Source of the DNA: Chiloscyllium plagiosum
Taxonomy: Eukaryota
DNA: 64,000 nt
Assembly: GCF_004010195.1 (NCBI RefSeq)
Contig: NC_057718.1
Coordinates: forward strand, 89,072,787-89,136,786
Direction: 5' to 3'
The notes beneath the pieces were generated by a model. That model ran no database searches. It had not been told where the DNA came from and saw only the letters and a list, made by a program, of their open reading frames with translations. Position 1 is the stretch's first letter, and each line of letters starts with the position of its first letter. A program made the translations under genes and the position numbers. This document shows, in pieces, positions 1 through 57,620 of the stretch.

Positions 1-372
1 GAATACTTCAACCCCAGGGCATCAATGTGGACTTTAACAGTTTCTTTATTTCCCCTTCCCCCACCTCACCCTAGTTCCAAACTTCCAGCTCAGCACTGTC
101 CCCATGACTTGTCCGGACTTGTCCTACCTGCCTATCTCCTTTTCCACCTATCCACTCCACCCTCTCCTCCCTGACCTATCACCTTCATCCCCTCCCCCAC
201 TCACCCATTGTACTCTATGCTACTTTCTCCCCACCCCCACCCTCCTCTAGCTTATCTCTCCACACTTCAGGCTCACTGCCTTTATTCCTGATGAAGGGCT
301 TTTGCCCGAAACGTCGATTTCGAAGCTCCTCGGATGCTGCCTGAACTGCTGTGGTCTTCCAGCACCACTAAT
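1..372 (+). mobile_element. 3' end of a Penelope-like retroelement (C-terminus of the GIY-YIG endonuclease ORF plus terminal repeat), cut by the window start
   Basis: 3-74 reads ILQPQGINVDFNSFFISPSPTSP*, resembling the LGTLxPxGxN end of PLE endonucleases; followed by a C/T-rich tract and a hammerhead motif at 284-319. Confidence 0.8.
284..319 (+). ncRNA. Minimal type I hammerhead ribozyme motif (family A), core intact
   Basis: attc-CTGATGA(288-294)-A-GGGC-tttt-GCCC-GAAA(308-311)-CG-TC-ga. Perfect 4-bp stem II, palindromic ACGU stem III, predicted cleavage after C315. Stem I is only ~2 bp. Confidence 0.75.
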
Positions 373-508
373 CCATAATTCTTCTGCTCATAGCCATCTT
401 GATCCAGGCTGCAACAAACATCTTCCTCGAAGACTGAGTGTAATTCCAGCAGTGGCCACTGCTCCGTCCTGGCACTGTTGGGACTACAGAGCTGCTAACC
501 AATCAGAT

Positions 509-628
509 GAAGGGCTTATGCCCGAAATGTCGACTCTCCTGCTCCTCGGATGCTGCCTGACCGGCTGTGCTTTTCCAGTGCCACACTCTCGACTCTGATC
601 TCCAGCATCTGCAGTTCTTCACTTTCTC
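509..628 (+). mobile_element. Short PLE-derived insert (family A), 5' truncated within the hammerhead
   Basis: gaagggcttatgcccgaaatgtcga...cactttctc flanked by a 10-bp direct repeat ccaatcagat (499-508, 629-638). Confidence 0.75.
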
Positions 629-968
629 CCAATCAGATTGATCAGCCACTCTCTAGAGGGGGACTGCTGTCCAGAAAAGGGCTGAGGTCCTGAAATAATT
701 AAGCCTGTCCCAGTGTAATACCAGTGTGGGGAAGCTGGCTTTTGAGCGGGTGGACTGAAGACAGTCTTTTCAATCAGTTAGGCAGGGAATATGGCGTCCT
801 GTAGGATCCAGCCCATGCTGAACCAAAACGTCCAATTTCGTATCCAAGAATTTCTCCTAGCTGTTGCCCTAATTGGTGTCCTTCTTCTACATCCATCTTA
901 GAGTCAGCAACAGCTTCTGTTATTCAGTACAGCTCCCCTGCAAGGGGGAGAGATTAATGTTTGAAGAG

Positions 969-8265: not shown

Positions 8266-8331
8266 AAATTCTTCCTGTAGGTGAGGTAATTCAGTACAGA
8301 TTTAGAGTTTCCAGCGGGACCCCTGATATGT

Positions 8332-9160
8332 AGTCATAGAGATGTACAGCACCGAAACAGACCCTTTGGTCCAACCCGTCCATGTCGACCAGATATCCTA
8401 ACCTAATCTCATCCCATTTGCCAACACCCAGCCCATATCCCTCTAAACCCTTCCTATTCATATATCCATCCAGATGCCGTTTAAATGTACCAGCCTCCAC
8501 CACTTCCTCTGGCAGTTCATTCCATACACGCACCACCCGCTGCGTGAAAAAGTTGTCACTTAGGCTCTTTTTAAATTTTCCCCTCTCACCCTAAACCTAT
8601 GCCCTCTAGTTCTGGACTCCCCAACCCCAGGGAAAAGACTTTGGCTATTTACCCTATCCATGTCCCTCATGATTTTATAACCATCTATAAGGTCATCCCT
8701 CAGCCTCCGACGCTCCAAGGAAATTAGCCCCAGCCTATTCAGCCTCTCCGTATAACTCAAATTTTCCAAACCCGGCAACATCCTTGTAAATCTTTTATCA
8801 AGCCTTTCAAGTTTCACAACATGCCTTTCTATAGGAGGGAGACCAGAACTGCTCGCAATATTCCAAAAGTGGCCTAAACAATGCCCTGTACAGCCACGAC
8901 ATGACTTCCCAACTCCTATACTTAACGCTCTGACCAACAAAGGAAAGCATACCAAACCCTTTTTCACTATCCTATCTACCTGTGACTCCTCTTTCAAGGA
9001 GCTCTGAACCTGCACTCCAAGGTCTCTTTGTTCAGCAACACTCCCGAGGACCTTACCATTAAGTGTATAAGTCCTTCTAAGATTTGCTTTCCCAAAATGC
9101 AGCACCTCACATTTATCAAAATGAAACTCCATCTGCCACTCCTCAGCCCATTGGCCCATC
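8332..9160 (-). mobile_element. HER1/CR1-like LINE 3' fragment (end of RT to 3' UTR)
   Basis: QWAEEWQMEFHFDKCEVLHFGK...RDLGVQV...LERRRLRDDLI..YKIM; frameshifted. Confidence 0.9.
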
Positions 9161-9859
9161 TGACCATGGTCATTGTTGCCAGATAAATGTAAGAACAACT
9201 CTTCAATGGCTCCATCAACCTCACCAAAGTATTTGACTCAATTACTTATGAGGCTATGAACCAGGCACCTTCAAAATCCTTCAAGCAAGGCAATGCGATA
9301 GCCACCACCCTGTTTACCGGACTCTAGTTATTCACCTCATCAAAGGTCCATTGCCCGTTGGTGTCAGTACTGAACACCACCAAGGTGGAAAGGTTTTCAA
9401 CCTCAGTTGCCTCAGTGTCAAATTCAATTAGCCCCCCCATAAATGCACGTGATCTACAGTTAGCAGGTATTTCCCATTCTCCCCTTCCTTTTCAAGTCAC
9501 TCTCTATGTCTTCAATTCTGCATTTAAGAAACTTGATCTATCCTTGAATGCTGTTGTAACAAGGCATATATCAACTAACCACCCAGTCATCCAGATATTC
9601 CAATCTCTGTTGAAGGAGAATACACTGAATACTTCCTATACCAATGGTAGATACACCTCTCAAAAGTCTACCATTGACGAGAAGATCCAATACCAGGATC
9701 AGCTACGCTGGCTCAGCCTTGTATAAACTGAAGTAGCAAGAATCTGACAAGACCAAGCTTCTCAGAAGTCACCAAAATTCCTCATGCCCAGCTCTTAACT
9801 GGGTTACAATGACACATTGCAGTCCTGGAGGAACTCTGTCGGTAATACCTCTGCCCCAT

Positions 9860-13285: not shown

Positions 13286-13492
13286 CCATGATGTGGAGGG
13301 ACCAATGTCGGACTGGGGTGGACAAAGTTAAATATCACACAACAACAGGTTATTGTCCAACAGGTTTATTTGGAAGTATTAACTTTCAGAAAGCTGCTTC
13401 TTCATCAGATCGCAGCTACATGACAAAAGAGCAGTGTTCTGAAAGTTAGTGATTCCAAATAAACCTGTTGGACTATAACCTGATTTTTAACG
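13286..13492. mobile_element. Inverted-repeat PLE-derived insert, family B, with degenerate hammerheads on both strands
   Basis: Arms caggttattgtccaacaggtttatttggaa / ttccaaataaacctgttggactataacctg; 9-bp TSD tttgagtag (13277-13285, 13493-13501). Confidence 0.75.
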
Positions 13493-15427: not shown

Positions 15428-15650
15428 AAAAGCACGGAATGCTGGAGAAACTCAGCAGGTCTGGCAGTATCTGTGGAGAGAGTTAATGCTTTGAGTTCCA
15501 TAGAGCTCTTCTTCAGTTTCATGAAATCTCAATTCTGGAGAAGAGTCATATTCGACTTGAAGTATTCATTCTGTTTTTCTCTCCACAGAAACTACCGGAC
15601 TTTGGGAGTATTTAAGTACTTGCACACTTTTGTTTCAGATTTCCAGCGTA
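15428..15650. mobile_element. Inverted-repeat PLE-derived insert, family C (older)
   Basis: gctggagaaactcagcaggtctggcag...gagttaa arm followed by its degenerate reverse complement. Related copies at about 15985-16085(+), 17748-17835(-), 39145-39240(-), 41315-41440(+), 46420-46620 (both arms). Confidence 0.7.
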
Positions 15651-16190
15651 GAATCATAGAATCTGTGCGGTGCAGAAAGAGCCCATTTGGCCCATTGAGT
15701 CCGTACCAACCATCTGAAGAGCATAACTGTTAGCCGAATGCTATGCAAATAAGTCTCGGAGACCGAAGGAAGATTGAATGGTTTGTCAGTAACTGAGGAT
15801 CATCTGAGTCCAGATTTGGAAAACAATAATCGCTTGATTTCAAAACACTAATATCCCTGCTAGTTATTGGTAATGGCTTTACATGTAAGTGTTAGCTTGG
15901 ATGATGAGGAGATGGACATTCTGAACGGTGAAAGGGCATCTGCAGAGGTTGTGACTGAACTGGAGGTTATTTCCTTCCTGTCAATTGGACTCAAAACATT
16001 GGCTCTGCTTTTCTCTCTGCAGACCTGCTGAGTTCCTCCAGCATTTTGTTTGTATTTCAGATTTCCAGCATCCTTGCTTTCATTTTAACACGGAATCCTC
16101 AATGTCCCATTATCCCGGAAAGTACTAGTTGTGATTTCGCAACTCAAAAAGCTGAGCTCAGAGAGTTTGAGAAGAGATAGAGTTTATCTT

Positions 16191-16194
<4 letters not shown>

Positions 16195-16715: not shown

Positions 16716-18354
16716 TTTCTTCTGCTTTGGCGCCTCTACACACTAACATTTGTATTCAGCCTACTTTTTTTTTAACTTTATGAATTTGGCTAGCAACGTA
16801 ACAGTGAGCAGAGAGTCAGCTTTTTGTTTTGTGTGACGTCGATCAGGGAATAGGTGTTAGCCACAATGTCAGGGTTAACTCTGCCAACTCTTGGAAACAG
16901 TAATATGAGGATTCTTTTACGTCTATCCGAGAGGGAGTTGTTTCAGTATTTCATCCAGGGACCGGCTGCACCAGCAAGGCCCACCCTCAGTACAGCTCTA
17001 GTGGGGCAATCAAGATGCCTGCTGATTTGCAAATCCCTCTCCTTCACCACCCTTCCCACCCCCAAACTCCATGACATCTCTGCGAATGAACCTCCTGTTC
17101 CTTGCAGCCGTGGGGCAGGAGTGAGTAAGCAGCAAGGGAGCGAGGCTTAGGGTGGGGATTGTGGGGGGAGTCAGAGGCTCAAGGCTATGAGGAAAGAGAG
17201 TGACTGCGAATCAGAGGTTGAAGGAGAGGGAGATAGATCAATGGAGCTGGAGAATGAGGGGATGAAGGAGAGGAATGGATGGGAGTTGAAGAGTGAGGAA
17301 TGGCAATTGGGAGTGAGGAGTTTGGATCATGGTGCGAAGGGGTGAGAGGTAGATTGGGGAAGGGGGCAGATATGGGGACCAGCATTCCCAACAGAGCTAG
17401 GAGTAACTTAAAGATGTTGAATGAGGGCAGCACTGAGAGAGAGGAAGAGCCAGCAAAAGGAGAGAGTGAAAGCTGGGGACCTTACTTAGTTTCCACTGAT
17501 GAGAGAATGACAAGCCAGACAATGGAGACCAATGGGAATGGGAAACAGAAGATTCTTGACCTGTATGGAAGTAGAGGCTAGAACATCACTGAAAGGCAAT
17601 GGGATAACTATCTGAACCGGAGAGATATAAAAGCTCTTGGAGATCTGAGAGCACCAACACCACCAAATGGCCTTCTCTTGCTGGAAGTTCGACCATTTCC
17701 ATGGAAACTTACCTTTATTAAAACTGAGCATGAGGAATGGTTTAGAAATAAAAACAGCAAGTGCTGGAGAAACTCAGCAGGTCTGACAGTGAGAGAGAAA
17801 GTTAATGTTTCAAGGCCTAGATGACTCTAATTTGGAATGTTTCTTCAGGTTTCTGAAGCAGTGGCATATTGGAATCGTACCTACAGCCGCTGAAGTAATT
17901 TTGATGCTGCAGTCCCTGTGGTAATGAAGGCAGTGCTTGGTGAACGATTTGTGCACAGCACGATCCCACAAACTAAATAATCAGATAATCCAGCTTTGTT
18001 GGCTTTGGTGAGGTGTGCTTTTCATTTTTAAACATGAGAGGTTGCTTATTTCTCCAAATAAAAAAGAATTATTACAAGTTCTGATTGCCGTACTTCCCGA
18101 TTTCCATTGAGAGAGTTTGTTCTGTGGGATTTTTTTGTTAGCTCTTAGTGGATCAGATCTAGCCAATCACATCGAGCCTAAGGTAGTTTAATAGCTATTA
18201 CTTACTTATTCAAGGAGTTGCCAAGCTTCTTAATCAAGTTCTGAAGAGCAGAAAATTCCAGGAACATGAAGTAATTTCTTCAAGGTTAATTAACTCCAAC
18301 AGGATTCTGAGAGACTGCTTTCCAGATCTCCAGGATTTTAAGGAAAGTAACACA

Positions 18355-24443: not shown

Positions 24444-24770
24444 GTATCCGTAAAGACCGTCGGGGTGGCCGGATGTTAAAGCACAAGCGGAGGAAAGATG
24501 AGAAGGAGCACGTCATTAAGAGTACGGGAGTGACCAGCAGACCGAGCTCCAGCAGCGTGAGCCCAGTGCAGAGGAGCACCAAGCACAGCTCTCTGCTTGG
24601 CATGACCTCGGACGAGATTCTCAGTACCCTGATGGAGGCCGAGCCCCCTATGGTTTACTCCGAACACGACCCCGGCAAACCCTTCACCGAGGCGTCCATG
24701 ATGACTTTGCTAACAAACCTGGCTGATAAGGAATTGGTGCACATGATCATTTGGGCTAAGAAGGTTCCAG
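24444..24770 (+). CDS. esr1: Internal coding exon of estrogen receptor alpha (hinge + LBD helices 1-3; equivalent to human ESR1 coding exon 4)
   Basis: Translates as (G)[22 protein letters not shown]...[47 protein letters not shown](G), matching ER-alpha [16 protein letters not shown]...[45 protein letters not shown]. Pyrimidine tract + CAG acceptor at 24441-24443; GT donor (CCAG|gtagga) at 24771; 327 nt, phase 1-1, same boundaries as the vertebrate exon. The [14 protein letters not shown] hinge is alpha-type rather than beta-type. Confidence 0.93.
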
Positions 24771-24894: not shown

Positions 24895-25250
24895 CCAGCA
24901 TTGAAGAGTGTGGTGCTGGAAAAGCACAGCCGGTGAGGCAGCATCTGAAGAGCAGGAGAGTCAACGTTTCGAGTTCTTCATCAGGATGTTGTCTTTGTCA
25001 AAGTAGTCCTGCTACCAAGCCTATGACTAACGTGGACTTTCTATGCTCCCAAATAAAGATTGTCAGTGCTTCATTAAAACCAGTTTTAGAAATTGCACAA
25101 GAGGAACTATCTTTGCTCTTCATTCCTGATGAAGAGCTTATGCTTGAAACAGCGATTCTCCTGCTCCTCGGATGCTGCCTGACCCTCTGTGCTTTTCCAG
25201 CACCACACTCTTCGACTCTGATCTCCAGATCTGCAGCCCTCACTTTCTCC
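24895..25250. mobile_element. Family A inverted-repeat PLE insert whose spacer contains direct-repeat copy 2 (24996-25115)
   Basis: Minus arm 24905-24987 ending cttcatcaggat; plus arm 25122-25250 starting attcctgatgaag; possible 8-bp TSD gtgtcaga (24887-24894, 25253-25260). Confidence 0.85.
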
Positions 25251-26284
25251 CAGTGTCAGAGTAAAGGACAGATAAATTAATAAATTCAAATATGAGTTTC
25301 AGTCAAAGATAGATGACATTGTCCCAAGATTAAACAGTGTCACATTGTGCTTTTTCCTGCAAAGATTGAGAGTTGCAGCTTGTGTTCACTTACCTGACAG
25401 GCCTGTCTCTGCCAAAAACCTCAAACTGTCTCAGTCCAGCGGAAATCACAGATCATGTCTGATCAGACTTTGATGTTTAAAATTTTTTTTTTTAACTGGC
25501 TTGGATACAGCATCAGCATCTCTCAAACAGATTCCAAGTGTTTGTTTTGAAATGGAGTGAAAAGAAGTGACAATAGGTTGTTATGAAGTATAGAGTGAGC
25601 CGAGTCCAGCCATTCTAAAGCTTAGAGAAATCAAGAGTTGCTCACTGCATGTAATATCCAAAGATTAGATTCCCTACAGTGTGGAAACAGGCACTTCAGC
25701 CCCACATCAACCCTCTGAAGAGTAACCCACCCAGTCCCATTTCCCTCTGACTAATGCACCTAACACTATGGGCAATTTCCCATGGCCAATTCACCTGACC
25801 TGCACATCTTTGGACTGTGGGAGGAAACCAGAGCACCCAGAGGAAACCCACGCAGACACAGGGAGAATGTGCAAACTCCACACAGACTGTCACCCAAGGC
25901 TAGAATCAAACCTGGGACCCTGGTGCTGTGAGGCAGCAGCGCTAACCACTGAGCTACCCTGCATGTCGGTTAGCTTGACATGACAAAAGCTAACCGGGTG
26001 GAGTAGGAAAAATATATCATAGACTGGAATCTCCAGCACAAACCATTCTTGAAACAAAATCCGTGAATTATTTTAAAGAGATTGAAATGGAAAGAGGGTT
26101 TGAACGAGAGGACCTTGACTAGATTGGAGGCTCATGTGGAGGCAAATGCCAGCAAAAAAGCTGTGCCTTCCATTACCCCCAACAATACATCCCACTTCAT
26201 CCCCACCTTCCTACTGCATGCACAGGAGGGCCTCCTCCCTCCTTATGTTCCAGGTTCTTAAGAAAACCTTTCTGTGAACTGGCA

Positions 26285-27100
26285 GTTCCGAAGAAGAGTC
26301 AATCCAGACTCAAAACGTTAACTCTGTCTCCCCGCTGCCTCTCCACAGGTGCTGCCAGAGCTGCTGAGATTCTCCAGAGTTCTCAATGTTTGTTTGTTAG
26401 CAGTCTGTCTGTACTTCTCTGATCTGGTTTACTCGCTGCTCACAGTTTGGTCTCCAGGTACACTGGGGGAGGTCAAATGCAGACTGGGTGACCACTTTGT
26501 AGAACACCTCTGCTCAGGCTGGAAGCAACCCTCCAACCTTCGGTAAATCATCTCACTCACATTCATGTTTCTGTCCTGGGCCAACTGTAGGGCTCCAGTG
26601 AAACCTAAGGCCAGCTGGAGGAACAGCACTTAATTTTCCATTGAGGCACTTTACAGCTTTCAGGATTTAACGTTGAGTTCAACAACTCCAACCTCTATTT
26701 TGATATGTTTTTCCTCTAGTGTCTGTATCTTGCTTTCCAGTTTCTGCCTTCAGTCAGATCTGTCCTTTATTCTGATAGTAACACCTACTCTGGATCTTGT
26801 CTCTGAATTCATTACTGATCCCTTTACAATTTGTTCTCTGATACCTGTGATCTCAAATCTCCTTCACCCTCTAGTCCTATCATTATGGTCCACTTGCTCC
26901 TCCCCATTCTCACTATAGTATCAATCACTTTTCCACCTCACTTCAATTCTGAAGAGGAGGTAGGCTCAACCGAAAAGGTTAACTCTGTTTTTCTCTCTCT
27001 CTGTCTCCACAAACCCCCACAGCTAGACCTGCTGAGTTTCTCCAATACTTTCTGTTTTTGCTTCAGATTTCCAGCACGCACAGTATTTTGCTTTTGTATT
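26285..27100 (+). mobile_element. PLE remnant: terminal repeat, GIY-YIG endonuclease fragment, second terminal repeat (family C)
   Basis: DLVYS...GEVKCRLGDHFVEHL matches the (L/I)Y...YIGETKRRLxxRFxEH pattern, then LEEQHLIFH; hammerhead-like repeats in direct orientation at ~26286-26325 and ~26947-26985. Confidence 0.75.
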
Positions 27101-32625: not shown

Positions 32626-32716
32626 GCAAAAGTAAGGACTGCAGATGCTGGAGATCAGAGTCGAAAGTGGGGTGCTGGAAAAGCACAGCAGGTCAGGCAG
32701 CATCTGAGGATCAGGA
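32626..32716 (-). mobile_element. Family A PLE-derived short insert lacking the hammerhead
   Basis: 12-bp TSD gacctactgaag (32614-32625, 32717-32728). Confidence 0.8.
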
Positions 32717-35700
32717 GACCTACTGAAGTGCTAGTCCTGATAATGGGAACAGGAGATAACCTTAGAGATAGATCTTGAAGGTTTCACGTGGAGGGGCTGA
32801 GACTATTGGCTGCTTGTTCCATTGTCAAGTTGTCCAGGGGAAGAATGACTGTTGATACACTGCCTTGGGAACTAATAGCTTTTGTAGTTTGTGTGGATGG
32901 CTCTTTTATTTGTCATTACTTGGGAATCTCGGGTACTTGTTTCTGTTCATTACCACAAATACATTACAAACCCAGAATGTGGTTTCTCCCCACCACTTGC
33001 CACTAGAGCACTGGCTGTGACGTTGTTCAAATTGTTGTTTCGATTCATTTATAAGATGCAATTATCAAAATTTATTGCCCACCTCCAATTGCTAACAGCT
33101 TGAACCACTGCAGTACCAGCTAGGTAGCTTGCCAGGACATCTCAAAGGCAACATGTCAACCAGAATTTCTGGCCTTAAAGGAAGTTAGTGAATCAGATGG
33201 GATTTTATGATAACTGTTTTATAGTCACATGATTGGGCTAGCTTTTAATTTCAGATTTTACTCACCATCTGTCATGCTGGGATTTGAACCCATTTCTCTT
33301 GAGGGTGATAGCCTGGATTAATCATGCAATGACGTTATCCTAACCCACCACCTCCCTGGAATCTATTTTCTCTCCTATTACACTGCAGTGTGGTGCATGA
33401 GCACTCGCAGACCACCAATAGAAGTGATGTGCAGCATTAGGCCCAAAAGAAAATGTCAAGCAAGATCCCAGAGTTGCATCCGTCACTGCTCCCTTTCTTT
33501 GGGTAGTGTTCTGCCACGTCTCAGGGTAATGGTGGCAGCCAGGAGAAGCCATTTGGCCTCTCTGCTGGCACTGGCTTCACCAGATTGGTTCAAAGTCATG
33601 GGGTTGTTCTGGGGCTTACATTTCTGGCTGGAGACTGACTACAGACCTTCTTGTAGAAAGATCCTTAAAGGGAATGAGAGTGGGATTGGAGTGGGTGGGG
33701 TATTAAAGAGTCAAGGAAGTTGAGAAAAAGAACAGAATTAGACTCAGTTTGATATTGAAGGTTATGGGCAATGAGCAAGTGATTGAAGCGTAGGCTTGAT
33801 CGAAAATGTGAAGCGAAAGGCCTAGCTGGGGAACTGTACTCTAGTTGTGGAAGAGCGTCCAAAAATGTTCATGAGAGGTATTAAGAATGGAGCGGGGTTT
33901 CCTGGATTCTCTGATGTGGTGCTGGGTGTCTCAGGCATGGAGGTGGAGAGGAGTGGTCACAGTCTGGAGGGCCACAAGGGCCTCAAGACAGATACTCCTG
34001 AGGATATGGGATTAGGAAACCATCAAAGGTCAATGTGAGGAATGTACCTTGGTACTGCATAAAAAGAATGGGCTTCCACAAGACATTAGTGTCAGTGATT
34101 ATATGTTCAAATGCCATCTCTCAATCATTAGACTCATAGAGTTATACAGCACAGAAACAGATCCTTCCATGCCAAACCAGATATCCTAAACTGACCCAGT
34201 CCCATTTGCCAGTATTTGGCCCATATCCCTCTAAACCCTTCCCGTTTATATATCTATCACATTGCACTGCACCAGGCTGCACTGCAGAATGACCATATCA
34301 CCTTCACACCCATCAGCAATCTCAAACAATGTGGATTCATTGATCATTTTGTTGTTCCCCATAGCTGCTTACCAGTCTCATTCCACGTCTCGTAGCTTCC
34401 TCGCATGAGCAACTATTTACCTGTAGCAGGTACAATCCCGGACACTGCACCACACTCACTGGCACTCTTTCTTTTCTCATCCAGAACAAGAAGGCAGGAG
34501 AGGAGAGAGAGAGTGGGGGAGAGGCACACCTGCATTTCCTGAGACAGTGGTGTGAATTGTTGAGCCAACAGTGACTGACACTGTTGTGATCGGCCTCATC
34601 AGGGCGATGTGATATTACGCACCTTCTCCATCCCTGCTTCAACCTGCCCTCCCCCCCGCCTCAACCTGGTCTGTGAGTCGTGAGACCATTCACCTCTCCT
34701 CTTCCGTCCAATAAAAGCAATGGGAGATAGAATGAGGCCTTTGATTGGCTATTAATTATGGGTAGGTTGGGAGAGGAGTCACATGGTACAACAGCACCTC
34801 CCTCCCGCCAGGGAGGGAAGGTAAAGTTCAACCCAAAATGGCAGGCCAGGCTCCAAGTCGGTATTAGGCATTAAGTGATGCCACGATATGCCAGCTCTGC
34901 ATGCTTTCCCGCACGTGCCCTTTCTGGTGCCCTCCCAAGAAGTGGGTCGGCTGTACAGGAATCAGCCAGCAATGAATTGGCCATCTTCGAGGCACTGACA
35001 CAACACAGCCTCATTTTCTGACCTTTGTACTTTCTTATTGAATAGAGAAGAGCAGAATGACATACATCGGACCCAGAATTATCACCTTGAGCTTTCAATT
35101 TGATTCTAAGACTGTGTTTTGGGGGTCAAAGTCCAAGTGACAGGAAAGTTTTTTTATAGAAAAATCAATGATGCAGCTAATGGGGACACAGTGACCAGCT
35201 CTTCACCACCAGATTATTGCAATGTGTGCTCAGGTATTGCAGTACGTACAGTGACAAGGAACTTCAGCAATCCAAATCTGATCCATCAAATCAAAATCAC
35301 TGGTATTGATTGAAATGACGCTACACTTGCTAGTTGCAGTCACAGTATTATGTGTGCAGTTCTGAAGTCTGTAAATGAATAAAGATGAAGAGACATTGGG
35401 GAAGGTGAGAAAAAAGGTTGACAAACGTGATACTGGAACTGAGGAGATCTCACTATCAGGTATTTATGAACAGATTGAGTTTCTTCAGAAGAAATATCCG
35501 ATCGTGTATATTATAAATCATATTAAATTATATTGTAATTGCAAAGCATGGTGATAAAGTAGACGCAAAATGGTATTTCCAATTCTAAGGGATTCCAGAC
35601 AAGTGTCCATAAACATAAATCACTAATAAACTGATTAAGAAATTCAGGAGCATTGAGGTGTATCTTATAGAAACCTATAAAATTCTAACAGGAGTAGATA

Positions 35701-36054: not shown

Positions 36055-36230
36055 AAGACCAGAAGTCACTCGACACCAAGTTATAGTCCAAGCAGTTTAT
36101 TTGAAATAATAAGCTGCTCCTTCGTCAAATGGACATCAAGCGCTCTAAAAGCTTGTGAAATCAGATAAATGCGTTGGACTATAATCTGGTGTTGTGTGAC
36201 TTCTGACCTTGTTCACCACACCTCCACATA
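36055..36230. mobile_element. Decayed family B inverted-repeat insert
   Basis: agaagtcac..gacacca.gttatagtccaa / ttggactataatctggtgttgtgtgacttct arms. Confidence 0.7.
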
Positions 36231-36279
36231 GTGGAAGTGATCAAGGCAGAAGTGCAGACTCAACTGAGCTCCGTCTCTG

Positions 36280-36785: not shown

Positions 36786-38621
36786 ATATCCTTCCAGCAA
36801 GTGTCCCAGGCACAATATTATACAACACAGATTTAACTTGATAGCCCACTTCAGGAAGTTTACCTGTCTGCAGTGGTACACAATCTGATGAATTTGTTGT
36901 TATTTATTCACTTATTGCCCATCCCTAATTGACCAGAGGTCAGTTAACAGTCAGCCATATGGCTGTGGGTCTGGAGTCACATGTAGGCCAGATGAGGTAC
37001 GGCTGGAATTTTCCTTCCTAAAGGACATGAGTGAATGCCTTGGGTTTTTCTCTCAATCTTAGAAACATACTTACTAACTGAAAAACTCTGTTCCCCATTC
37101 TTGTCAATATATTTCCTCTGTTTCGATCGCACATCCTTCCTTCACGCCTTCACTCCCACACAATAGCCGCACAACTCAAATCAACTGGCCAAGCCAGGGA
37201 AAATTGTTTTTTATCCCTTGCCCTTTGATGTATAGCAAAGAATCTTGAGAACAACCTAAAAAACAATCCCGCACATTGAGACTCCTACACAGCTCAAATC
37301 ATGTTGGGCAACCAACGGAAATTGTTTGAATAATTCTTTTCATTTCCCTTTTGATGTATAGCGGAGTCTTGAGAACGACTTTTAAACATTGGCTTGAGAT
37401 CAAAGACCTGCACCAACCGCTTCAGAACAAATGATCTTGTTCTGGTTTTTAGCCACTTTACGAAAGGGGGAGAAAAACAGTCCCTCAGGTTTTCGATTAT
37501 TGTCTGGAAGTTCTGCATCGTTGAGTTCCAGCTACGAGCCCTCCCTTTTGGAATTCTCTTCATACCAAGCAAGCTATGCCAGAGTTTGTCCAAGGTCACA
37601 TCAGTTATAAGATGCCACCTGACCTTTAGCTGTGGTTTACTTCAGTTTTTTTTTCAGCAACAGTGAAATGTTGAGAAAATGATAAATTCAGTCTTGTCAC
37701 TTATACCAATACGTTAACATTTCAGAAATGCACCATTCGATCAGACTCCCTGCAGTGTGGAAACAGACTCCGTCAGTCCAATAAGTCCACACCAACTCTC
37801 GGAGAGCAACCCACCCAGAACCATTTCCCTCTGACTAATGCACCTAAACACTACGGGCAATTTAGCCTGGCCAATTCACCTGACCTCCACATCTTTGGAG
37901 TGCGGGAGGAAACCAGCGCACCCAAAGGACAGACGTGGGTAGAATGCACACAGACAGTCGCCCTGAGGCAGGAATCGAACCTGGGTCCCTGGTGCTTTTT
38001 CCACTTATGTTTCCATGTTTGATTCTGAATTGTGTCTATCGTGTGAAAGGTTTTTTGAGAAAGGGACAAGCTCTACTGATGCTGTGCCTTATTGCGCCAC
38101 ATTATCTCAAAGAACCTCTGATCCAACAAAATTCCTTTGAAGTACAATCATTTTCAGGGCCACGTGTATCAGCTGTTTGTGCACAGCAAGATCCCAGCAG
38201 AGCAACAAGAGCGATGACCAGTAGGGGAGAGACGGTGGAAGGGGTCAGCCTTGTTATCCGAGGGGAGAATAATTGTCAAGGGAACTTCCTATTCTTCTTC
38301 CCAGAGCACAACACCATCCTTTACAGTCACTGAGTAAGGGGTCATACACACAAACGTATAAATTAGGAAAAGGAGCAGGCCGCTTGAGTTTGCTTTGTGA
38401 TTCAATGAGAGTATGGCTGATCTGAAAAATCCACATTCTCGGAGAAAGTGAGGACTCCACATTCTCACCAACCCTCAACAACGTTTCATTCACTTTCTTA
38501 TCAAGAATCTACCCACCTCTGACTTAAAAAAAACCCAAGATCCCTGCTTCACCTGCCTTCTGAGGACAAGAGAAAAAAAAACTTCCTTCTGCCTGTCTTC
38601 AATGGTTGACCATTTTATTTT

Positions 38622-38831
38622 AGTTAAAAGTCACACAACACCAGGCTATATTCCAATAGGATTATTTGGAAGTTGAAGCTTTTGGAGCGCTGCTCCTTCA
38701 TCAGGTAGCTGATGAGGGAGCAGCGCTCCAAAAGCTAGTGCTTCCAAATCAACCTGTTGGACTATAACCTGGTGTTGTGTGACTTTTAACTTTGTCCACC
38801 CCAGTCCAACACCGGCACCTCCACATCATGG
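38622..38831. mobile_element. Family B inverted-repeat PLE insert with back-to-back hammerhead motifs, inside a minus-strand CR1 fragment (38340-39620)
   Basis: Arms 38622-38705 and 38708-38791. Plus strand CTGATGA(38709-38715)-g-GGAGC-agc-GCTCC-aAAA-GC-TA-gtg; the same motif is on the minus strand. Both have GAAA>AAAA, consistent with CpG decay. Confidence 0.85.
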
Positions 38832-39659: not shown

Positions 39660-39900
39660 GACCCTGAGCTTCCAGTTGCCTGCCACTTTAACATACCTCC
39701 GTGTTCCCTGCCCAACATCTCTGTCTGAGTCTTGCTGCAGTGCTCCAGTGAAGCTCAGCACAAGCTGGAAGAACAGCACCTCATTTTCCACTTTGGGACC
39801 CTGCAGCCTTCTGGACTCAGTATTGAGTTCAACATCTTTAGGGCATGAGCTCTCCCATGTCCTTATGCCAACCCCGATACACCAGGCCAGTCTGTTAGAC
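39660..39900 (+). mobile_element. PLE endonuclease C-terminal fragment
   Basis: LLQCSSEAQHKLEEQHLIFHFGTLQPSGLSIEFN; a further piece lies at 40225-40325(-). Confidence 0.75.
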
Positions 39901-40977: not shown

Positions 40978-41009
<32 letters not shown>

Positions 41010-41086: not shown

Positions 41087-41637
41087 TTAATGTCCTGCCA
41101 GAGGACGTAGTGGAGGCTGGTACAATTACCAAACATTTAAAAGGCATCAGGATGGGTTGGGGAGGATTTAGCAGGACTTGGGCCAAATGGCGGGCAGATG
41201 GGATTAGATTAGTTTAGGATATCTGTTCAGCATGGATGAGTTGGACCAAAGGGCCTGTTTCCGTGCTGTGCATCTCTATGACTCTAAATGCCACCCTTCC
41301 CCATCTATCTTCATTTCTGACAAAGGGTCACTGGACTCGAAGTGTTAACTCTGCTCCTCTCCACACAAATGCTGCCAGACCTGGTGCGTTTCTCCAGCAT
41401 TTCCTGTTTCTGTTGACGATTTCCAGCATCCACAGTTATTTGTTTCAGGGAATAAAAGGTTTCATGTGGAAAAGGCAGGAGAGTGGAGTTGATGATTATC
41501 AGATCAGCCGTGGTCTCATTGAAACAGGAGGAGCTACTTCTGCTGCTACATCTAATGCGTTTACGGTTTTATGGGCATTTCAGTTTAGTATATGGTGAAT
41601 AGAGGGAGCTGCATTAGGACTGGGATCATTATTTTCT

Positions 41638-41865
41638 AAGTCGAGAGTGTGGTGCTAGAAAAGTGCAGAAGGCCAGGCAGCATCTGAGGAGCAGGAGAAT
41701 CGACGTTTCAGTCATAAGCCCTTCATCAGGAGGGCTATTCCTGATGAAGATCTTATGCCCAACGCATTGATTCTCCTGCTCCTCGGATGCTGCCTGACCT
41801 GCTGTGCTTTTCCAGCACCACACTCTCGACTCTGATCTCCAGCATCTGCAGCCCTCACTTTCTCC
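41638..41865. mobile_element. Family A inverted-repeat PLE insert
   Basis: Arms meet at cttcatcagga-gggcta-ttcctgatgaag; 11-bp TSD cattattttct (41627-41637, 41866-41876). Confidence 0.85.
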
Positions 41866-42089
41866 CATTATTTTCTTAACCCTATGACAACATGGCCCCT
41901 TGGAGTATCTGTGCTGCCAAAAGATCAAACATCTTAAGGTCCACCAAACTGATGGAAAGACTACCTCTGCAGGTAGTTTCTTCCCCTTACCTCCATCCAC
42001 CATTGCAGAGAAAAACTCTCATTCAGTCAGCATATATATCGTGGCAGCGTTCAAAAACGTAACACAGAGTATTGGCGTGAAACATGGCA

Positions 42090-42592
42090 GCAAGGATGTT
42101 GTGAAACTTGAAAGGGTTCAGAAAAGATTGACAAGGATGTTGCCAGGGTTGGAGGGTTTGAGCTATAGGGAGAGGCTGAATAGGCTGGAGTTGTTTTCAC
42201 TGGAGCATTGGACACTGAGGCATGACATTATAGAAGTTTATAAAATGAGGGGCATGGATAGGGTAAATAGACAAGGTCTTTTCCCTGGGGTGGGTGAGTC
42301 CAGAACTAGAGGGCATAGGTTTTGGGTGAGAGGGGAAAGATATAAAATGGATCTAAGTGCCAGCTTTTTCACGCAGAGGGTGGTGCGTGTATGGATGGGG
42401 CTGCCAGAGGATGTAGTGGAGGCTGGTACAATTACAGCATTTAACAGGCATTTGGATGGGTACATAAATAGGAAGAGTGTGGAGGGATATTGGCCAAAAG
42501 CTGTAAAATGGGATGAGATTATGTTAGGATATCTGGTCAGCATGGATGAGTTGGACAGGGTCTGTTTCCATGCTGTACATCTCTATGACTCT
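42090..42592 (+). mobile_element. HER1/CR1-like LINE 3' fragment
   Basis: KDVVKLERVQKRLTRMLPGLEGLSYRERLNRL...; ends ctctatgactct. Confidence 0.9.
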
Positions 42593-42619
42593 TTGACTGA
42601 GAGTGGTTGGAATGGAAAA

Positions 42620-42831
42620 AGTGAGGACTGCAGATGCAGGAGACCAGAGTTGAAAAGTGTGGTGCTGGAAAAGCAGCAGGCCAGGCAGCATCCGAGGAGC
42701 AGGAGAATCAACGTTTCGGGCATAAGCCCTTCTTCAGGAAGAAAGGCTTATGCCCGAAACGTCGATTCTCTTGCTCCTCGGATGCTGCCTGGCCTGCTGT
42801 GTTTTTACAGCACCACACTTTTCAACTCTGT
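42620..42831. mobile_element. Family A inverted-repeat PLE insert
   Basis: 13-bp TSD ttggaatggaaaa (42607-42619, 42832-42844); ~95-bp arms. Confidence 0.85.
42708..42740 (-). ncRNA. Minimal hammerhead motif, core intact
   Basis: Reverse complement ttc-CTGAAGA-A-GGGC-ttat-GCCC-GAAA-CG-TT-ga. Confidence 0.7.
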
Positions 42832-46318: not shown

Positions 46319-47207
46319 GTTTCTGGGTTTTGAGTTTGTACCCAACAGGTTTTCTGTGCATGTGCAGTTAACGAACTTGTGAAGAATTTTGCATTCATGA
46401 TGACTTCCTTTTAAAGACGAAAACAGAAATGGCTGGAAAAGCCCTGCCGGTCTGGCAGCATTTGTGGAGAGAAATAGTTTCAGGTTGAGTGACTCTTCCT
46501 CAATTCCGGAAATGTTAACTCTGATTTCTGTTCACAGATTCTGCCAGACCTGCTGAGCTTTTCTAGCAATTTCTACTTTTGTCTCTGATTTACAGCATCC
46601 ACCGTTCTTTTCATTGTTATTTCCTTGAATACCATATTCAGCATGAGTGGGTTTTGTGTGCACCTCAAATGGACCTCTGATTATTTTAGATTGTTTTGTC
46701 ACTCAGTACTGTAAGTAACAGGGCCTCAAAAGTATGTTAATGATTTCTGGAACTTTGTTTTTATTTCAAATGTAAGGGAAACACCCATCGCTTAAATACA
46801 GAGGCTTTTAGTTTCCCTTTTTGACTTTGAATTTGGAGCCGTGCTGTAAGGTCTTTGGAATAGGGTGGCTGCATACAGAAATGTTCCTGAGAAGGGCAGA
46901 AAATAAAGTGAGCTAGATTACCTTAGAGTGAAGAGTTAGTGTTGGTTCCAGACCAGAAGTGTTGAGATGAGACTCTGAAGAGGTTACTTAAAGCAGAGTA
47001 CACTGAAGCTCAGATATATGCGCGTTCCAGGAAGAAGCTGTCTGTAGTTCTGGTCTAAAAGTGGTGTGAGTATTATACAAGTTGTGTTTTGGGTTCTGTA
47101 CCATCAATGTGTCTTGAGTATGATACATAGTGCAATACAGTGGCTCAGTGGTTGGCACTGTTAGCTCACAGTGCCAAGCACTCGGGTTTGATTCCAGTCT
47201 CGGGTGA

Positions 47208-50874: not shown

Positions 50875-50941
50875 GTATGTGTGGAGTTTGCACACTCTCC
50901 CTGGGTTTACGCTGGATGCTCCAATTTCCTTCCAGACGAAA

Positions 50942-52019: not shown

Positions 52020-52972
52020 TAAATACAGTAAATGCCAGGACACTTATGGGCATTAATAAACAGAGTGATCTAGAGGTGCATGTCCGTAGCTCCCTGAAAG
52101 TGGCAACACAAGTGGATGAGGTGATAAAGAAGGCATATGACATGCTTGCTTTTATCAGTCAGGGCCCTGAGTACAAAGATTGGGAAGTCATGGTATAGCT
52201 GTGTAAGACTTTAGTCTAGATGAGAGTAGTGCTGGAAAAGCACAGCAGGTCAGGCAGCATCCGAGGAGCAGGAAAGTCGACGTTTCGAGCAAAAGCCCTT
52301 CATCAGGAATATTCCTAATGAAGGGCTTTTGCCGGAAACGTCGACTTTCCTGCTCCTCAGATGCTGCCTGACCTGCTGTGCTTTTCCAGCACCATTCTAA
52401 TCTAGACTCTGGTTTCCAGCGTCTGCAGTCCTTATTTTTGCCTGTGTAAGACTTTAGGCCACATTTGGAGTATTGCGTGCAATAGTGGTCATTCTACTAT
52501 TAGAAGGATGTGACGGCATTAGAAACGGTGCAAAAGAGGTTTACCAGGATGTTGTTTGGATTGGAGTGTACTGGCTAAGAGGAGAGGTTGGACAAACTTG
52601 GATTGTTTTTGCTACAGTGTTGGAGACTGAGAGGTGACCTGATAGAAGTACAGAAAGTGATGAGGAGCATGGATAAAATGGATAGTCGAAGTGCACTTCC
52701 CAGGCTGAAATACTGTGGGGGGAGGCTTAAGGGGTTTAAGGGGAGAGGGAGAAATATTAAATGAAACATGTGAGAGGAAAATCTTTTTATGCTGAGTAGT
52801 ATGTGCCTGGAACATGCTACCAGGGGAGGTGGTAGAAGCAGGTGCAGTGGCAACATTTAAGAGACATTTCCTCAGACACATGTGCAGGCAGATGTGATTA
52901 GTTTCGAATGGCTCATGGTGGCACAGGCAGACTGGGATAAAGGACCTGTTCCTGTGTCGTACTGTTCTATGT
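52020..52972 (+). mobile_element. CR1 3' fragment interrupted by a PLE insert
   Basis: DLEVHVRSSLKVATQVDEVIKKAY..LAFI, continuing after 52457 with PHLEYCVQ and VQKRFTRML. Confidence 0.85.
52215..52441. mobile_element. Family A inverted-repeat PLE insert, near-perfect palindrome centred at 52310/52311
   Basis: Centre catcaggaat|attcctaatg; 16-bp TSD ctgtgtaagactttag (52199-52214, 52442-52457). Minus-strand hammerhead 52277-52310 has an intact core (CUGAUGA-A-GGGC-uuuu-GCUC-GAAA-CG-UC). Confidence 0.9.
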
Positions 52973-53434
52973 TCAGTGGTCAGCATTGCATGCTTATGTT
53001 ACAGCAAGAGGCCACTTTGTTAAAATGCAAACAAATCAAAATACAACCGATCAATGTCAGGGATGTGACTTGTCTCGTAATAGTAACATCATAATGATTA
53101 TCAATGGCCAAAGAAGGGCAAACCATGGTTTTTGTTCCCATGTAGAAAGAAGCAACTTGTAGTTTTATTGTACCTTTGCATCCAATGAAATGTAGTTACT
53201 GCTGTGATGTTGGAAACGCAACAGCTACTTTGAGCACAGCAAGCTGGACAAGCAGCATGTTTATCATCAGAAAACCGACTCTGCTGCGTTTGGTTCAGGG
53301 ACAATTATTAGCCAGTGTCCAAGGGAGACGCTCTTTGCACTTGGCGTGCACAGTCCTTGTGGAAGGAAAGTCCTATCTTTACACTGTCCATCATGTTGTA
53401 TGGCACTAGCACTGTGCTGAATGGGATAGATTTC

Positions 53435-55540
53435 AAACAGATCCAGCTGGATCCATGAGGTGCTGCGGGTCATCAGCAGCAGGAGTCTCGTATTCAACCA
53501 TGATGGGTAATCTCGTAGCCCGGTATATTATATCCACTGTCCCATCCCCAGCAAGCTGGGGGGATCAGCCCTGGTTCCATGATGAGTACAGAGAGGCATT
53601 CCATGGTGTACCTAAGAATGATGTGTCCCAAACTACTTCAATACCAAACAGTATAAAGCAATAGACAGAGCTAAGTTATTACATGATCAATGGTTCAGAT
53701 CTGAGCACACATTCAGTTCTGAATGGTGGTGGACAATTAACAGGAGGAGTTGACTCCAGAAATATCCCCATTCTCAGTGCTGGGACAGCCCAGAAAATCT
53801 TTTCAAAACATGAGGCTGAAGTATTTGCTACTATTACCATCCAGTAACACAAAGGAGATCATCCATCTCAGACTCCTCTTTAGCCAAGTTGATTTGCCCC
53901 ATGTGATGTCAAGAGCAGCTGAAGACACTGCAAAGACTATCAGCACTGTCAATATTTCAGTAATAGTACTGAAAATGTATGCTCCGGAACTGGCTGTGTC
54001 CCTAGTGAAGCTGCTCCAGTGCAGTTCCAACACCTATTATCTACCAGCGATGTACAGTATTGCTCAGAATGTCACTTTTGAAACATCAGCAGTGTAGTGG
54101 AAGGATTGCTAACAGGGCAATCAAGCAGCACTTGCTCAGAACTAACTACACAGTTCGGGTTCCATCTGGGCCATGCAGCTCTTGATTTCATGCAACTTTT
54201 ACTTGAAACAAGTCAAATTGAACACAGCCAATTACTGTCCCATCAGCCTTATTTTAATCAGCAGCAAAGTGATGGAAGGTATAATTTACAATACTATGAA
54301 ACCGTACTTTCTCAGCAATAGCTGTTCATTGTTGCTCAGTTTAGATTCCACCAAGGATACTTGCCTCCAGACTTCACGACAGCCTTTGTTTAAACATGGA
54401 CAGAGGCGTTGATCTTGAGGGATGAGGTGAGAGGAACTGCCTTTGACAACAAGGTAGTAAATGATCAAGTATAGATCAAAATGTTCTATTAAACTTGGAC
54501 ATAATGGGAATCAGGGGCGAGCTTTCCACTGGTTTGTATCATTGCAGAGATGCCCTTAGAAAAGCAGAATGATCGTGGGTTTTGGAGGTCAATCATCTCA
54601 GTACAAGGATTTGTCAGTGTAGTGTCCTAGTCCCAACCATATTTGGTTACTACATCAAAAGCCTTCTCTCCATCATAGATGTAGAAGTGGGGTTATTCGT
54701 TGATGATTATGCAATGTTCAGTACCATTCACAACAAATTCACTGATCAGATACTGAAACAGCCCATGTCCACATGTCATAAGGTCACTGGACAACAGTTG
54801 AGCTAGTACTTGGCAAGAAACAGTTGTGCCACACAAATGCCAGACAATGACCATATCACACAAAAGAAAATCTAACCATTTCCCCTTGACATTCAATGAC
54901 TTTGCCATCACTGAACGCCTCACTGTCATATTCCAGTGGAGTTACTGTTCATGCACCAGGCATTTAATATTGTGGCTGCAAGAACAGGTCAGAGATCAGG
55001 GATTCTGAAGTGAACCACTTCCTGTTTTCCCAAAACCCCTTGACAAGGCACAAGTCAGGAGTGTGATGGAATACTCTCCACCTGCCTGGATGGGCGCAAC
55101 TCCAACCCAGTTCAGAGCAGCCTGCTTGATTGGCACTCCATCTACCACCTTCAACATTCCTCTATACTAACACATGGTGGGACAGTTGTGTAAGGTCCTC
55201 TGTAATAACTCATATAGTCTCTTTTAACAGCACATTCCAAACTTATGATGTCTGTCACTTAAAGGATGAGGACAGAAGTGATGGGAAAACCATCATTTAC
55301 AAATTCACTTTCAATTATGCACAATCTTGACCTGTATCTGTGTGCCAATCCTTTCTGCCACTGGGGTCAAAATGCTGGAACTCCCCCCCCAAACAGCACT
55401 ATGGCATATGTGTAACTACCCTCCAAGGTTATGGTGGTTCAAGAACATGGTTCATCCCCCACTTTCACCAGGTCAGTTGGTGGTGAGCAGCAAATGCTGG
55501 CCTAGCTAGTGACCCCCATATCCTGCAAATGAAAAAGTAA
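53435..55540 (+). mobile_element. Old non-LTR retrotransposon RT remnant (CR1/L2 group, distinct from the HER1-like family)
   Basis: LKMYAPELAVSLVKLLQCS, ANYCPISLILISSKVMEGII, SVLVPTIF..YI, GLFVDD, HKCQTMTIS, VRSVMEYSPPAWMG; 3' tail at 55480-55535. Confidence 0.75.
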
Positions 55541-57084
55541 CAAATAAATCGCCTTACTTTCCAAAAACGCACCATTCTCTCTGTCTTGCATTTACTCAAC
55601 AACTGAACTTCCATCGGTCTGCTGGGATAGTGAATTCCAAATGTTTGATTAGATTAGATTAGAATCCCTACAGTGTGGAAACGGGCCCTTCGGCCCGACA
55701 ACCCTCCGAAGAGCAACCCACCCAGACCCATTCCCCTATATTTACCACTGACTAATGCACCTAACACTATGGACAATTTAGCATGGCCAATCCACCTAAC
55801 CTGCACATCTTTGGACTGTGGGAGGAAACCGGTGCACCCAGAGGAAACCCACGCAGACACGGGGAAAACGTGCAAACTCTACACAGACAGTTGCCCGAGA
55901 CAGGAATTGAACCCAGGTCCCTGGCACTGTGAGGCAGCAGTGCTAACCACTGAGCCACCGTGCCACCCTAACGGATGAAATGGATGAATAGATGAAATTT
56001 CTCCTCATCTCAGTCCTAAATGGAAGACTTCTTATTCTGAGGCAATGTGTCTCAGTCTGATTTCCCCAACCTGGGAAAACATCCGCCCAGCATCTATCCT
56101 GTCACACTCCTTAAGAATTTTCTGTATTTCAATATGATTATCTCTCTTATTGTTCTAAGTCCCAGAAAATATAGGCAGAGTTGACTGATTCTTTCCTCAA
56201 CAGAGAATTCTCTCATGTTTTGCACCAATGCACAGAACCAGTTGTTTGTGGTAGCCGAATGTTAAATTACTGTGATTCATGTATGAAGACTCCTTGGTCT
56301 CTCAGAATACCAACATTACCCATTCTTTCAGCATTTCAAAAAAATTCTGCATTTCTATTTCCATTACCAAAATAAATAATTTCACACTTCTATACATTAC
56401 AAATCTCTTGTTTAACACATCCATTTTAATTTATATCCTCGTCATGGATTATTTACCAACCTGGCTTTGAATTCATAGAATCCCTACATTGTGGAAATAG
56501 GCCCTTCAGCCCAACAAGTCCACACCGACCCTCCAAAGAGTAACCCACCCAGATCCATTCCCCTACATTTACCCCTGACTAATGCACCCAACCTACACAT
56601 CCCTGAACGCGATGGGCAATTCAGCACGGCCAATTCACCTAACCTGCATATCTTTGGTTTGTGGGAGGAAACCCCACGCAGACACACAAGAATGTGCAAA
56701 CTCCACAATGACATTCGTTGAAGGTTGGAATCAAACCCGGGTCCCTGGTACAGCGAGGCAGCAGTGCTAACCACTGAGCCATCATGCCACCTGTATTGTT
56801 AGGAAACATGGTTGTATTACCACAATCCACTCATGTAAATCTTCGAAATTCAACTGTGAATCTGTTGGAGAGAGCCAAGGTCCAGATATTGATTTTTGCA
56901 GTAACCTACTAGTTACAGCCTGCTAACCAGAAAGTGACACACTTATTCCAACTATATGTCTTCTCCCTGTTAGATAAAACTCAATCCAATCGAATATATT
57001 TGCCCCAAACACCTGAAGTCTTAAATTTCAGTAATTACCTCATATTTTATTGAATGTCTTCTGAAAAATCCAAATAAACTGCTG

Positions 57085-57620
57085 AAAACAAAAAAATGCT
57101 GGAGATCACTGCTGGTCAGGCGGCATCCATGGAGAGTAAGCAGGCTAACATTTCAAGTCTAGATGACTCTTCATCAGAGCTGATGTGAAGTGTGAAGGGG
57201 GGCAGCACTTATTGCTATAGTTGGGGGGGGGGGGGGTAGTGTGAGGGTTGGAGTGTAGCGTGCTGGGGAAGAAAGGGTGTTGATAGTTCAGAATAAGGGG
57301 TCAAAATGTGAGAATGGCAGAATAATGGTGTGTAACTGGAAAGTACAGTCATTCCCACTGGCAATGAAGGGACGGGAGAGAGGACCTGGTGACAGAGAAT
57401 GTAACAAGCAAAGCTGAAAGGAAGGAAGGAGTGGGTTCACAACTTTGAACTCCGTATTGAGCCCGGAAGGTTGTAAACTGCGTAGTTGGAAGATGAGATG
57501 CTGCTCCTTCAGTTTTCACCGGAGCACTGCAGCATGCCGAGGACAGACAGGGGGGTATTTGACAGGAAGCTGTGTTAAAATGACTGGCCACGGGAAGATC
57601 GGTGTCATGCTAGAATCAAT
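57085..57620 (-). mobile_element. PLE 3' remnant with hammerhead at 57144-57180
   Basis: Endonuclease-tail-like EQHLIFQLRSLQPSGLNTEF on the minus strand, then gct-CTGATGA-A-GAGTC-atcta-GACTT-GAAA-TG-TT-agc (3-bp stem I gcu/agc, 5-bp stem II). Confidence 0.75.

Follow-up and report, generated by a model that had tools for sequence, protein, structure and literature searches.

The window considered here is a stretch of 64,000 nucleotides of Chiloscyllium plagiosum (contig NC_057718.1, positions 89,072,787 to 89,136,786 of the forward strand), which lies within the estrogen receptor gene ESR1 and whose introns contain dispersed repeats with the motif of a minimal hammerhead ribozyme. An initial annotation had sorted about two dozen of them into three families (A, B and C) and ascribed them to Penelope-like elements (PLEs). 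The question raised by this locus is what these repeats are, and whether they have anything to do with the gene in which they are found. Our answer, to which we give a probability of roughly 0.88, is that they are end modules, the pseudo-long terminal repeats (pLTRs), of three endonuclease-bearing Penelope-like families, that their hammerheads are predicted to cut only weakly, as a dimer or with the help of protein, and that the ESR1 copies, mostly truncated or mutated, are likely inert.

Hammerhead repeats and their linkage to Penelope-like coding sequence

Inspection of the sequence found the motif at all eight sites cited by the initial annotation, five of which (42708, 52277, 15255, 13380 and 57144) are left ends of minus-strand copies, and the cut in the copy at 288 is predicted after C315, the base named for it. 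The pattern CTGANGA-N5-30-GAAA occurs 22 times in the window versus 7.9 expected, a number reached by none of 100 shuffles. Family profiles, each built from 30 genomic copies, detected 12 A, 7 B and 10 C copies in the window, 29 in all, and none in three shuffles and the reversed window; parsing of cores added a decayed C-type hammerhead at 26949 as the thirtieth. The dispersed three-family repeats are real, and their total in the window is 30. In the 3.56 Gb genome, exact-core matches amount to 87,506 for A, 18,482 for B and 141 for C, with 0 exact matches for the reversed pattern of each. A descriptor that demanded both boxes, four pairs in stem II, U16.1 and H17 had 221 matches in 1.40 Mb, a set that includes loci picked by pattern, and 0 in reversed DNA.

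The PLE assignment is borne out for all three families by linkage to reverse transcriptase (RT) and GIY-YIG endonuclease (EN) coding sequence. For family B, 20 loci were picked from 150 matches of an N-terminal piece of the open reading frame (ORF). L181 has the order core, ORF, core, its direct repeats being spaced by 3,044 nt; L178 and L182 have the same order plus an extra inverted copy, and L168 carries an inverted copy at its 5' end. In L181, L182 and L168 an ORF with RT and GIY-YIG lies between direct pLTRs, each with frameshifts, stops or N. The B ORF pieces (L169, L170, L174 and L177) contain KPADKG, SALYT, GTAMG and YIDD, a CX4CX2C linker and a GIY-YIG-type segment, and the long tail of the family runs up to the ATG of the ORF. 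Pfam returned nothing on three of the five ORF pieces searched, both B RT pieces among them, and family B is assigned by the RT and endonuclease motifs it carries, together with an identity of 33% to the endonuclease of A (E 3.9e-23).

For family A the RT fragment, the GIY-YIG segment and the 3' pLTR were seen in place: the GIY-YIG ORF of L116 (PF01541, E 4.9e-5) stops about 200 nt before a core, and a same-strand core lies downstream in 19 of 20 loci picked from 150 RT-fragment matches. For family C the endonuclease C-terminus was found about 240-300 nt upstream of the core in 7 of 30 loci and also upstream of the window copy at 57177. The CX4CX2C linker stands between RT and EN in both A and B. 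A CX2-5CxxC linker between RT and EN is given as that of Neptune/Nematis (PMC8557442), and the likeness points to a placement of families A and B near this group. Another PLE-like RT, at L114:7242-8099 on the minus strand (RVT_1, E 3.3e-6), matches none of A to C, and its endonuclease may be of the type matched in L073.

The presence of hammerhead modules in PLE pLTRs is the arrangement of a class already known since 2014. Like the minimal hammerheads of PLEs described by Cervera and de la Pena (2014, PMC4209133), the ones found here have both boxes, an extra base between positions 9 and 10.1, a G10.1-C11.1 pair, a loopless palindromic stem III and a short stem I; they also occur as several families per genome, mostly solo or as opposite-strand pairs 100-700 bp apart, and few are in full PLEs. 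They differ in number (at least 106,000 exact cores, versus about 4,000 in coelacanth and about 9,000 in Xenopus, obtained with different search methods) and in a stem II of 4-5 bp instead of the 7-8 bp of the Schistosoma motifs (PMC4209133). No cartilaginous fish is named in the available text of that paper, and shark names were not found in the supplements searched.

Copies in the window and anatomy of their insertion

Nine head-to-head pairs, absent from the initial annotation, take up 18 of the 30 window copies. The copies and the coding fragments belonging to them are as follows (a dot marks pairs, which occupy both strands).

1..71, +: C-terminal end of a Penelope-like GIY-YIG ORF (reads ILQPQGINVDFNSF...), 86% to the L116 endonuclease end, then pLTR
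284..375, +: end of a family A pLTR with the 5' strand of stem I at 284-287, an intact core at 288-315 (cut predicted after C315) and a short tail
504..630, +: long-tailed family A copy with a mutated box (CAGAUGA) and AUGU as stem III
13286..13489,.: family B head-to-head pair, cores 13408- and ~13421+ both decayed, 12-bp duplications; the plus arm keeps AATAAA
15198..15286, -: family B copy, GAAA changed to AAAA, position 17 = G
15430..15620,.: family C head-to-head pair, decayed; no duplication found
15980..16048, +: family C fragment without 5' box (profile)
17752..17848, -: family C copy, core with insertion
24895..25252,.: family A head-to-head pair, spacer ~140 nt, cores 24984- and 25126+ both broken, 8-bp duplication
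26284..26383, +: family C copy (C2 subtype, stem I AGUU/AACU), CCGA box and AAAA
26567..27060, +: decayed GIY-YIG C-terminus (26567-26686), then the decayed C-type hammerhead at 26949
32664..32718, -: tail of a family A copy that lacks the core (profile)
36060..36232,.: head-to-head pair of family B with a 15-bp duplication and cores deleted in part
38621..38795,.: family B head-to-head pair, cores 38704- and 38709+ both with GAAA changed to AAAA
39150..39242, -: family C copy with a broken stem II
41313..41408, +: family C copy with a mutated core
41640..41865,.: family A head-to-head pair (41729-, 41741+), 13-bp duplication, arms 90 and 125 nt
42620..42828,.: head-to-head pair of family A with a 16-bp duplication; the core of its minus arm (42737-) is intact
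46415..46584,.: decayed head-to-head pair of family C
52213..52441,.: head-to-head pair of family A whose 98-nt arms are 93% complementary; duplication 16-18 bp, core on the minus strand (52306-) intact
57088..57515, -: family C element 3' end with the GIY-YIG C-terminus at 57515-57447, then the pLTR, a core at 57177 that is near-intact (two G-U changes) and the tail
63964..63999, -: tail of a family A copy, truncated at the edge of the window (profile)

Further decayed GIY-YIG C-terminal fragments lie at 39663-39839 (+) and 40221-40319 (-), with no hammerhead found 3' of either.

A CUGANGA and GAAA-NN-UH core, a paired stem II and G10.1-C11.1 are present in the majority forms of the families but in only 3 of the 30 window copies (288+, 42737- and 52306-), all of family A; integrity was read from 25 parsed sites, the remaining five copies lacking the 5' box in the profile search. 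GAAA has become AAAA at 38709, 38704, 15282 and 26288, the last also having CCGA for CUGA, and stem III reads AUGU at 57177. The statement that the repeats keep the core holds insofar as the cited sites carry the motif, but 27 of 30 cores are mutated or shortened and no B or C core is intact. To call the intronic copies ribozymes is not supported either, the two intact ones other than 288 being antisense and enclosed in fold-backs; 284..375 is the sole copy in the window that is intact, solo and in the sense of ESR1. As for the flanking sequences, which had been described as different, the three families are distinct, but the tail of A is related to that of C, so that the flanks are not unrelated.

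The random sample of the genome (60 evenly chosen 10-kb stretches, 567,901 non-N bases) holds 123 copies, about 217 per Mb, of which 48 are head-to-head and none tail-to-tail. In the window, six of the nine pairs are flanked by target duplications of 8-18 bp. One long and one short arm were seen in 18 of 24 distinct pairs, 12 of 14 with duplications of at least 10 nt (chance 6/300); one arm ends at about +77-97 and the other at +117-134, on the scale on which the predicted cut lies at +29, and the 3' ends of all copies are bimodal with the same two positions. At the other end, 53 of 118 A copies and 9 of 25 B copies start in the interval -12..+5, versus 6 of 118 and 0 of 25 in +25..+33; the per-base start rate of family A in the first interval is 0.038, versus 0.003-0.008 upstream. 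In contigs of an independent run, X17, the loose 5' ends listed are most frequent at -4 (753 contigs), with -3 in 238.

Two other explanations of the 5' boundary were considered and rejected. Copies do not start at the cleavage site, their 5' ends piling up at the 5' edge of stem I, and a splice acceptor is not supported, the acceptor-like sites of family A being seen by eye near -17 and -26 and not at the -4 peak. The modal boundary of family A (-4; 284-286 in the window) starts with ATT, the preferred cut motif of the endonuclease of PAc, the Poseidon element of Anolis, which may be a coincidence. The same-strand copies at 288 and 504 are 216 nt apart, and the core of the former could in principle pair with stem III and the stem I strand of the latter, forming a hybrid site.

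How such copies could arise can be proposed by combining these observations with published ones. The module stands at both ends of the RT and GIY-YIG ORF in family B and after the ORF end in A and C. Reverse transcription would begin internally on the RNA, past the hammerhead, from two start sites spaced by about 35 nt, as the bimodal 3' ends and the in vitro behaviour of PAc suggest, and the protein would nick and prime both target strands, one per start site. Priming of both strands from two starts would lead to head-to-head pairs with one long and one short arm and duplications of 7-18 bp. Most copies stop at the 5' edge of stem I and not at the cut, and the template would be the uncut RNA; the edge may be either the start of the RNA or a stop of the RT. 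For PAc (Frangieh et al. 2024, PMC11167929) two internal RT starts, nicking and extension of both strands, and uncut template RNA have been described, and the two 3' end positions past the hammerhead found here resemble those starts. There are also differences: the PAc ORF begins at stem II, while the family B ATG is about 120 nt after the core start, and A and B, unlike PAc, carry a zinc-finger-like linker.

The arrangement is also that of the insertion unit published for endonuclease-bearing PLEs, in which a pLTR with an adjacent inverted 5'-truncated copy has a 30-40 bp tail at one end and a target-site duplication (PMC3846280, PMC8557442). The copies found here share with this unit the head-to-head and never tail-to-tail orientation, the tail on one arm and the short duplications, but differ in that usually no more than hammerhead and tail remain of either arm, and the arms meet at the 5' edge of stem I.

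It could be proposed instead that the fold-backs are elements propagating by themselves, non-autonomous and similar to miniature inverted-repeat transposable elements or to retrozymes. Their terminal inverted structure, the target duplications and the 9,973 exact A junction matches across the genome (some overlapping, and with some recurring centres) would agree with this. However, the junctions vary from -6 to +16 in length and also in sequence, the arms are unequal, the duplications range from 7 to 18 bp, and the same inverted arrangement is present at the 5' end of long elements, as published for PLEs (PMC8557442, PMC3846280). The non-LTR retrozymes (bioRxiv 10.64898/2026.07.22.740005), reported from one chondrichthyan, are likewise non-coding, hammerhead-bearing and pLTR-derived, but they are defined as tandem arrays, whereas the window copies are solo or inverted: even between the nearest same-strand pair (288 and 504) the sequence is unrelated, and the window has no tandem head-to-tail units. 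We consider self-propagation quite improbable.

Structure and decay of the hammerheads, and the host gene

The three families have their own stem II (GGGC/GCCC in A, GGAGC/GCUCC in B, GAGUC/GACUC in C) and a loopless palindromic tetramer as stem III (ACGU in A and C, AGCU in B), as the initial annotation had stated. Among the 221 descriptor matches the middle of stem III, for which no palindrome was demanded, is CG in 114 and GC in 58, the rest being mostly CpG decay, and an A stands between positions 9 and 10.1 in 218. Position 17 of a hammerhead must not be G; in the majority forms of all three families no catalytic base is lost and position 17 is cleavable (C in A, A in B, U in C). Stem I, whose pairing was demanded neither by the family patterns nor by the descriptor, is AUUC/GAUU in A, CAC/GUG in B, AGCU/AGCU in C1 and AGUU/AACU in C2. 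It has 4 bp in C, 3 bp in B and three pairs around a U-U in A, reaching 4 bp only in the GAAU subfamily, compared with the 4-5 bp or so expected for the open-ended stem I of minimal PLE hammerheads. The majority pairs in A, B and C are CG, CG and UA at 2.1:1.1, UA, AU and CG at 2.2:1.2, and the U-U mismatch, CG and GC at 2.3:1.3.

Covariation between families is real, though it comes from only about four lineages: three stem I positions change on both sides and stay paired except for the U-U in A. The covarying stems of the initial annotation stand as pair-preserving differences in stems I, II and III between families, but few such differences exist among copies. Structural parsing, used for the counts because MAFFT put family B one column off, gave for stem II within families 96 one-sided and 5 two-sided changes in 819 cells at loci not picked by core, all five being Watson-Crick. 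Structure would be kept by selection on active elements, so that the pair-preserving differences would lie between families.

Two further subfamilies were noticed. An A subfamily with loop CUGU (L003, L006, L011 and L026) pairs all 4 bp of stem I (AUUC/GAAU) and carries AATAAA in the tail; an old C-like one (L131:9737, L150:2006 and L217, minus strand) has stem II GGGU/ACCY or AGGU/ACCU and stem I AGUU/AACU.

Inserted copies decay neutrally, with no sign of selection on their cores. At the C11.1-G12 CpG, changes that destroy G12, the general base of the hammerhead (PMC6155905), are as common as those that keep a G-U pair (40 versus 32, P=0.41); stem III has decayed to CA in 23 and to TG in 26 of 141 A copies; and intact cores number 47 of 141 in A and 23 of 51 in B, or 20 of 76 and 4 of 18 in the random and ESR1 subset.

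The placement of the repeats in estrogen receptor introns was confirmed. An exon at 24444-24770 resembles the ligand-binding-domain chains of estrogen receptors in a PDB search (E 2.8e-25); Pfam gave no match for its raw frame. The exon with the second zinc finger precedes the window and three later exons follow it, all of them on the plus strand and located with short motifs. With exons on this strand beyond both edges, the whole window is inside the gene and intronic apart from this exon. We take the gene to be ESR1 rather than ESR2 from the sequence of the hinge, the PDB names being "estrogen receptor" or "alpha". The features of this part of the window outside the hammerhead repeats are:

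24444..24770, +: coding exon of ESR1 for the hinge and the first part of the ligand-binding domain (PDB match, exon bounds)
8560-9237 (-), 41888-42600 (+) and 58594-59025 (-): fragments resembling RT C-termini of long interspersed nuclear elements, presumably of CR1/L2 type

The location inside ESR1 raises the possibility of domesticated intronic ribozymes which cut or regulate the pre-mRNA, like the amniote RECK hammerhead. In favor of this one can cite copy 288, intact, solo and in the sense of the gene, which a second A copy follows after 216 nt, and a local density about twice that of the random sample. However, all but 3 of the 30 cores are broken, the two unbroken ones besides 288 lie on the antisense strand in predicted hairpins of -165 to -172 kcal/mol, CpG decay is neutral and the A core has its 87,506 exact siblings across the genome; the RECK type is single-copy and conserved among species at its orthologous site, and high copy number with neutral decay argues against it here. 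Moreover, a region of 229 kb around ESR1 has 95 hammerhead copies, 49 sense and 46 antisense, with no strand bias. Given strand balance, neutral decay and genome-wide abundance, a tie between repeats and receptor is not supported: domestication is very improbable, and the intronic repeats likely have nothing to do with the receptor.

Several results weigh against our assignment to PLE modules with weakly cutting hammerheads. Covariance-model search of the window against Rfam gave no hammerhead family among 11 matches, even at E<=10; the matches obtained are weak microRNA-hairpin families, all below gathering scores, to which the fold-backs give rise. No uninterrupted family A ORF with both pLTRs was obtained among the 20 RT-fragment loci, since their middles read N and the apparent open frames are mostly runs of N, and the linkage of family C rests on decayed fragments of the endonuclease end only. 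Stem I has the U-U mismatch in 140 of 190 A copies and only three pairs in B. The predicted minimum-energy fold of the 288 monomer is an alternative hairpin, and two such monomers are not predicted to co-fold into the dimer form. The density around ESR1, 26.5 copies per 64 kb versus 13.9 in the genome sample, is about double. Finally, head-to-head forms were ascribed to self-priming by Arkhipova et al. 2013 (PMC3846280).

The roughly twofold density holds for the window and its neighbours L031-L032 and L117-L132. The fold-back pairs are predicted to form hairpins of -75 to -172 kcal/mol, which would bury a core.

Polyadenylated RNA of family B

RNA was studied in X22, a single run of a single-cell poly(A) library, of which about 2% of reads were used and whose organism is possibly a relative. 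In it, 2,436 reads align to a family B pLTR, with a depth over the core of 840-920 with the first mate on the minus strand versus 70-230 on the plus strand; these depths and the A tails on the plus strand indicate that B transcripts are sense RNA. At +58 and +61, respectively 249 and 311 reads enter poly(A), 12-15 nt past ATTAAA and ahead of a GU-rich stretch:

L167:2541-2562: poly(A) site used by family B RNA in run X22, about 30 nt beyond the predicted hammerhead cut

The hexamer is present in 69 of 91 B copies (ATTAAA 50, AATAAA 19, the subfamilies alternating), no B copy has an A-run at this place, and the site followed by A10 has 0 copies in the genome versus 54,116 matches of the native motif. 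As there is no genomic A tail at the site, the tail is added to the RNA. In this one run, then, family B RNA acquires its poly(A) tail about 30 nt beyond the predicted cut, upstream of both putative RT starts. It should be noted that the reads may stem from host transcripts ending in B copies. Family A reads are about equal on both strands, which is what passive transcription would give, and the loose ends listed include no poly(A). The main text of the PAc paper available to us (PMC11167929) makes no mention of polyadenylation, and in a literature search of partial coverage (titles and abstract starts) no listed paper had shark PLE hammerheads, or a poly(A) site that follows a PLE hammerhead, as its subject. 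In the window, the B arm at 13421-13489 (+), on the sense strand of ESR1 with AATAAA and downstream sequence, is a candidate cryptic intronic poly(A) site.

The same reads bear on whether the motif is kept in active elements as a catalyst or as an RNA structure, namely a protein-binding or boundary signal that stops or switches the RT. Reads of X22 cross the predicted B cut with no drop in depth, the ends listed for X22 and for X17 show no pile-up at the predicted cut, 5' ends of genomic copies lie at the edge of stem I rather than at the cut, and core mutants of PAc leave insertion in vitro unaffected (PMC11167929), all of which would suit a structural role. But every catalytic base and a cleavable position 17 are kept in three families, the PAc motif does cleave once protein is added (PMC11167929), and poly(A) libraries of this kind would lose a cleaved 30-nt product; the lack of a pile-up is weak evidence either way. 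A purely structural role, compatible with our explanation as regards the identity of the repeats, appears possible but doubtful.

The order of sites in the family B pLTR, with a predicted cut, a poly(A) site 30 nt on and then two putative RT starts, also suggests a compact switch: polyadenylated RNA would serve only as messenger, RNA reading through would alone provide a template from the 3' end, and the messenger would have its poly(A) tail cut off by the ribozyme. We regard this as an unlikely scheme, to be held tentatively.

As a class, PLE hammerheads have been known since 2014 and little is added here; what is added is their scale and the poly(A) site of family B. More than 100,000 exact cores, and about 200 end-pieces per Mb, form a very large natural record of PLE insertion ends, on which priming of both strands from two starts, and the point where the template begins, can be tested. 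The role of PLE hammerheads is still termed unclear (PMC8557442), and a poly(A) site just past the predicted cut of family B offers a concrete handle on it. If the compact switch were true, these hammerheads would have a testable job, and the roughly 54,000 scattered B copies would be cryptic terminators for host genes, one of them in an ESR1 intron.

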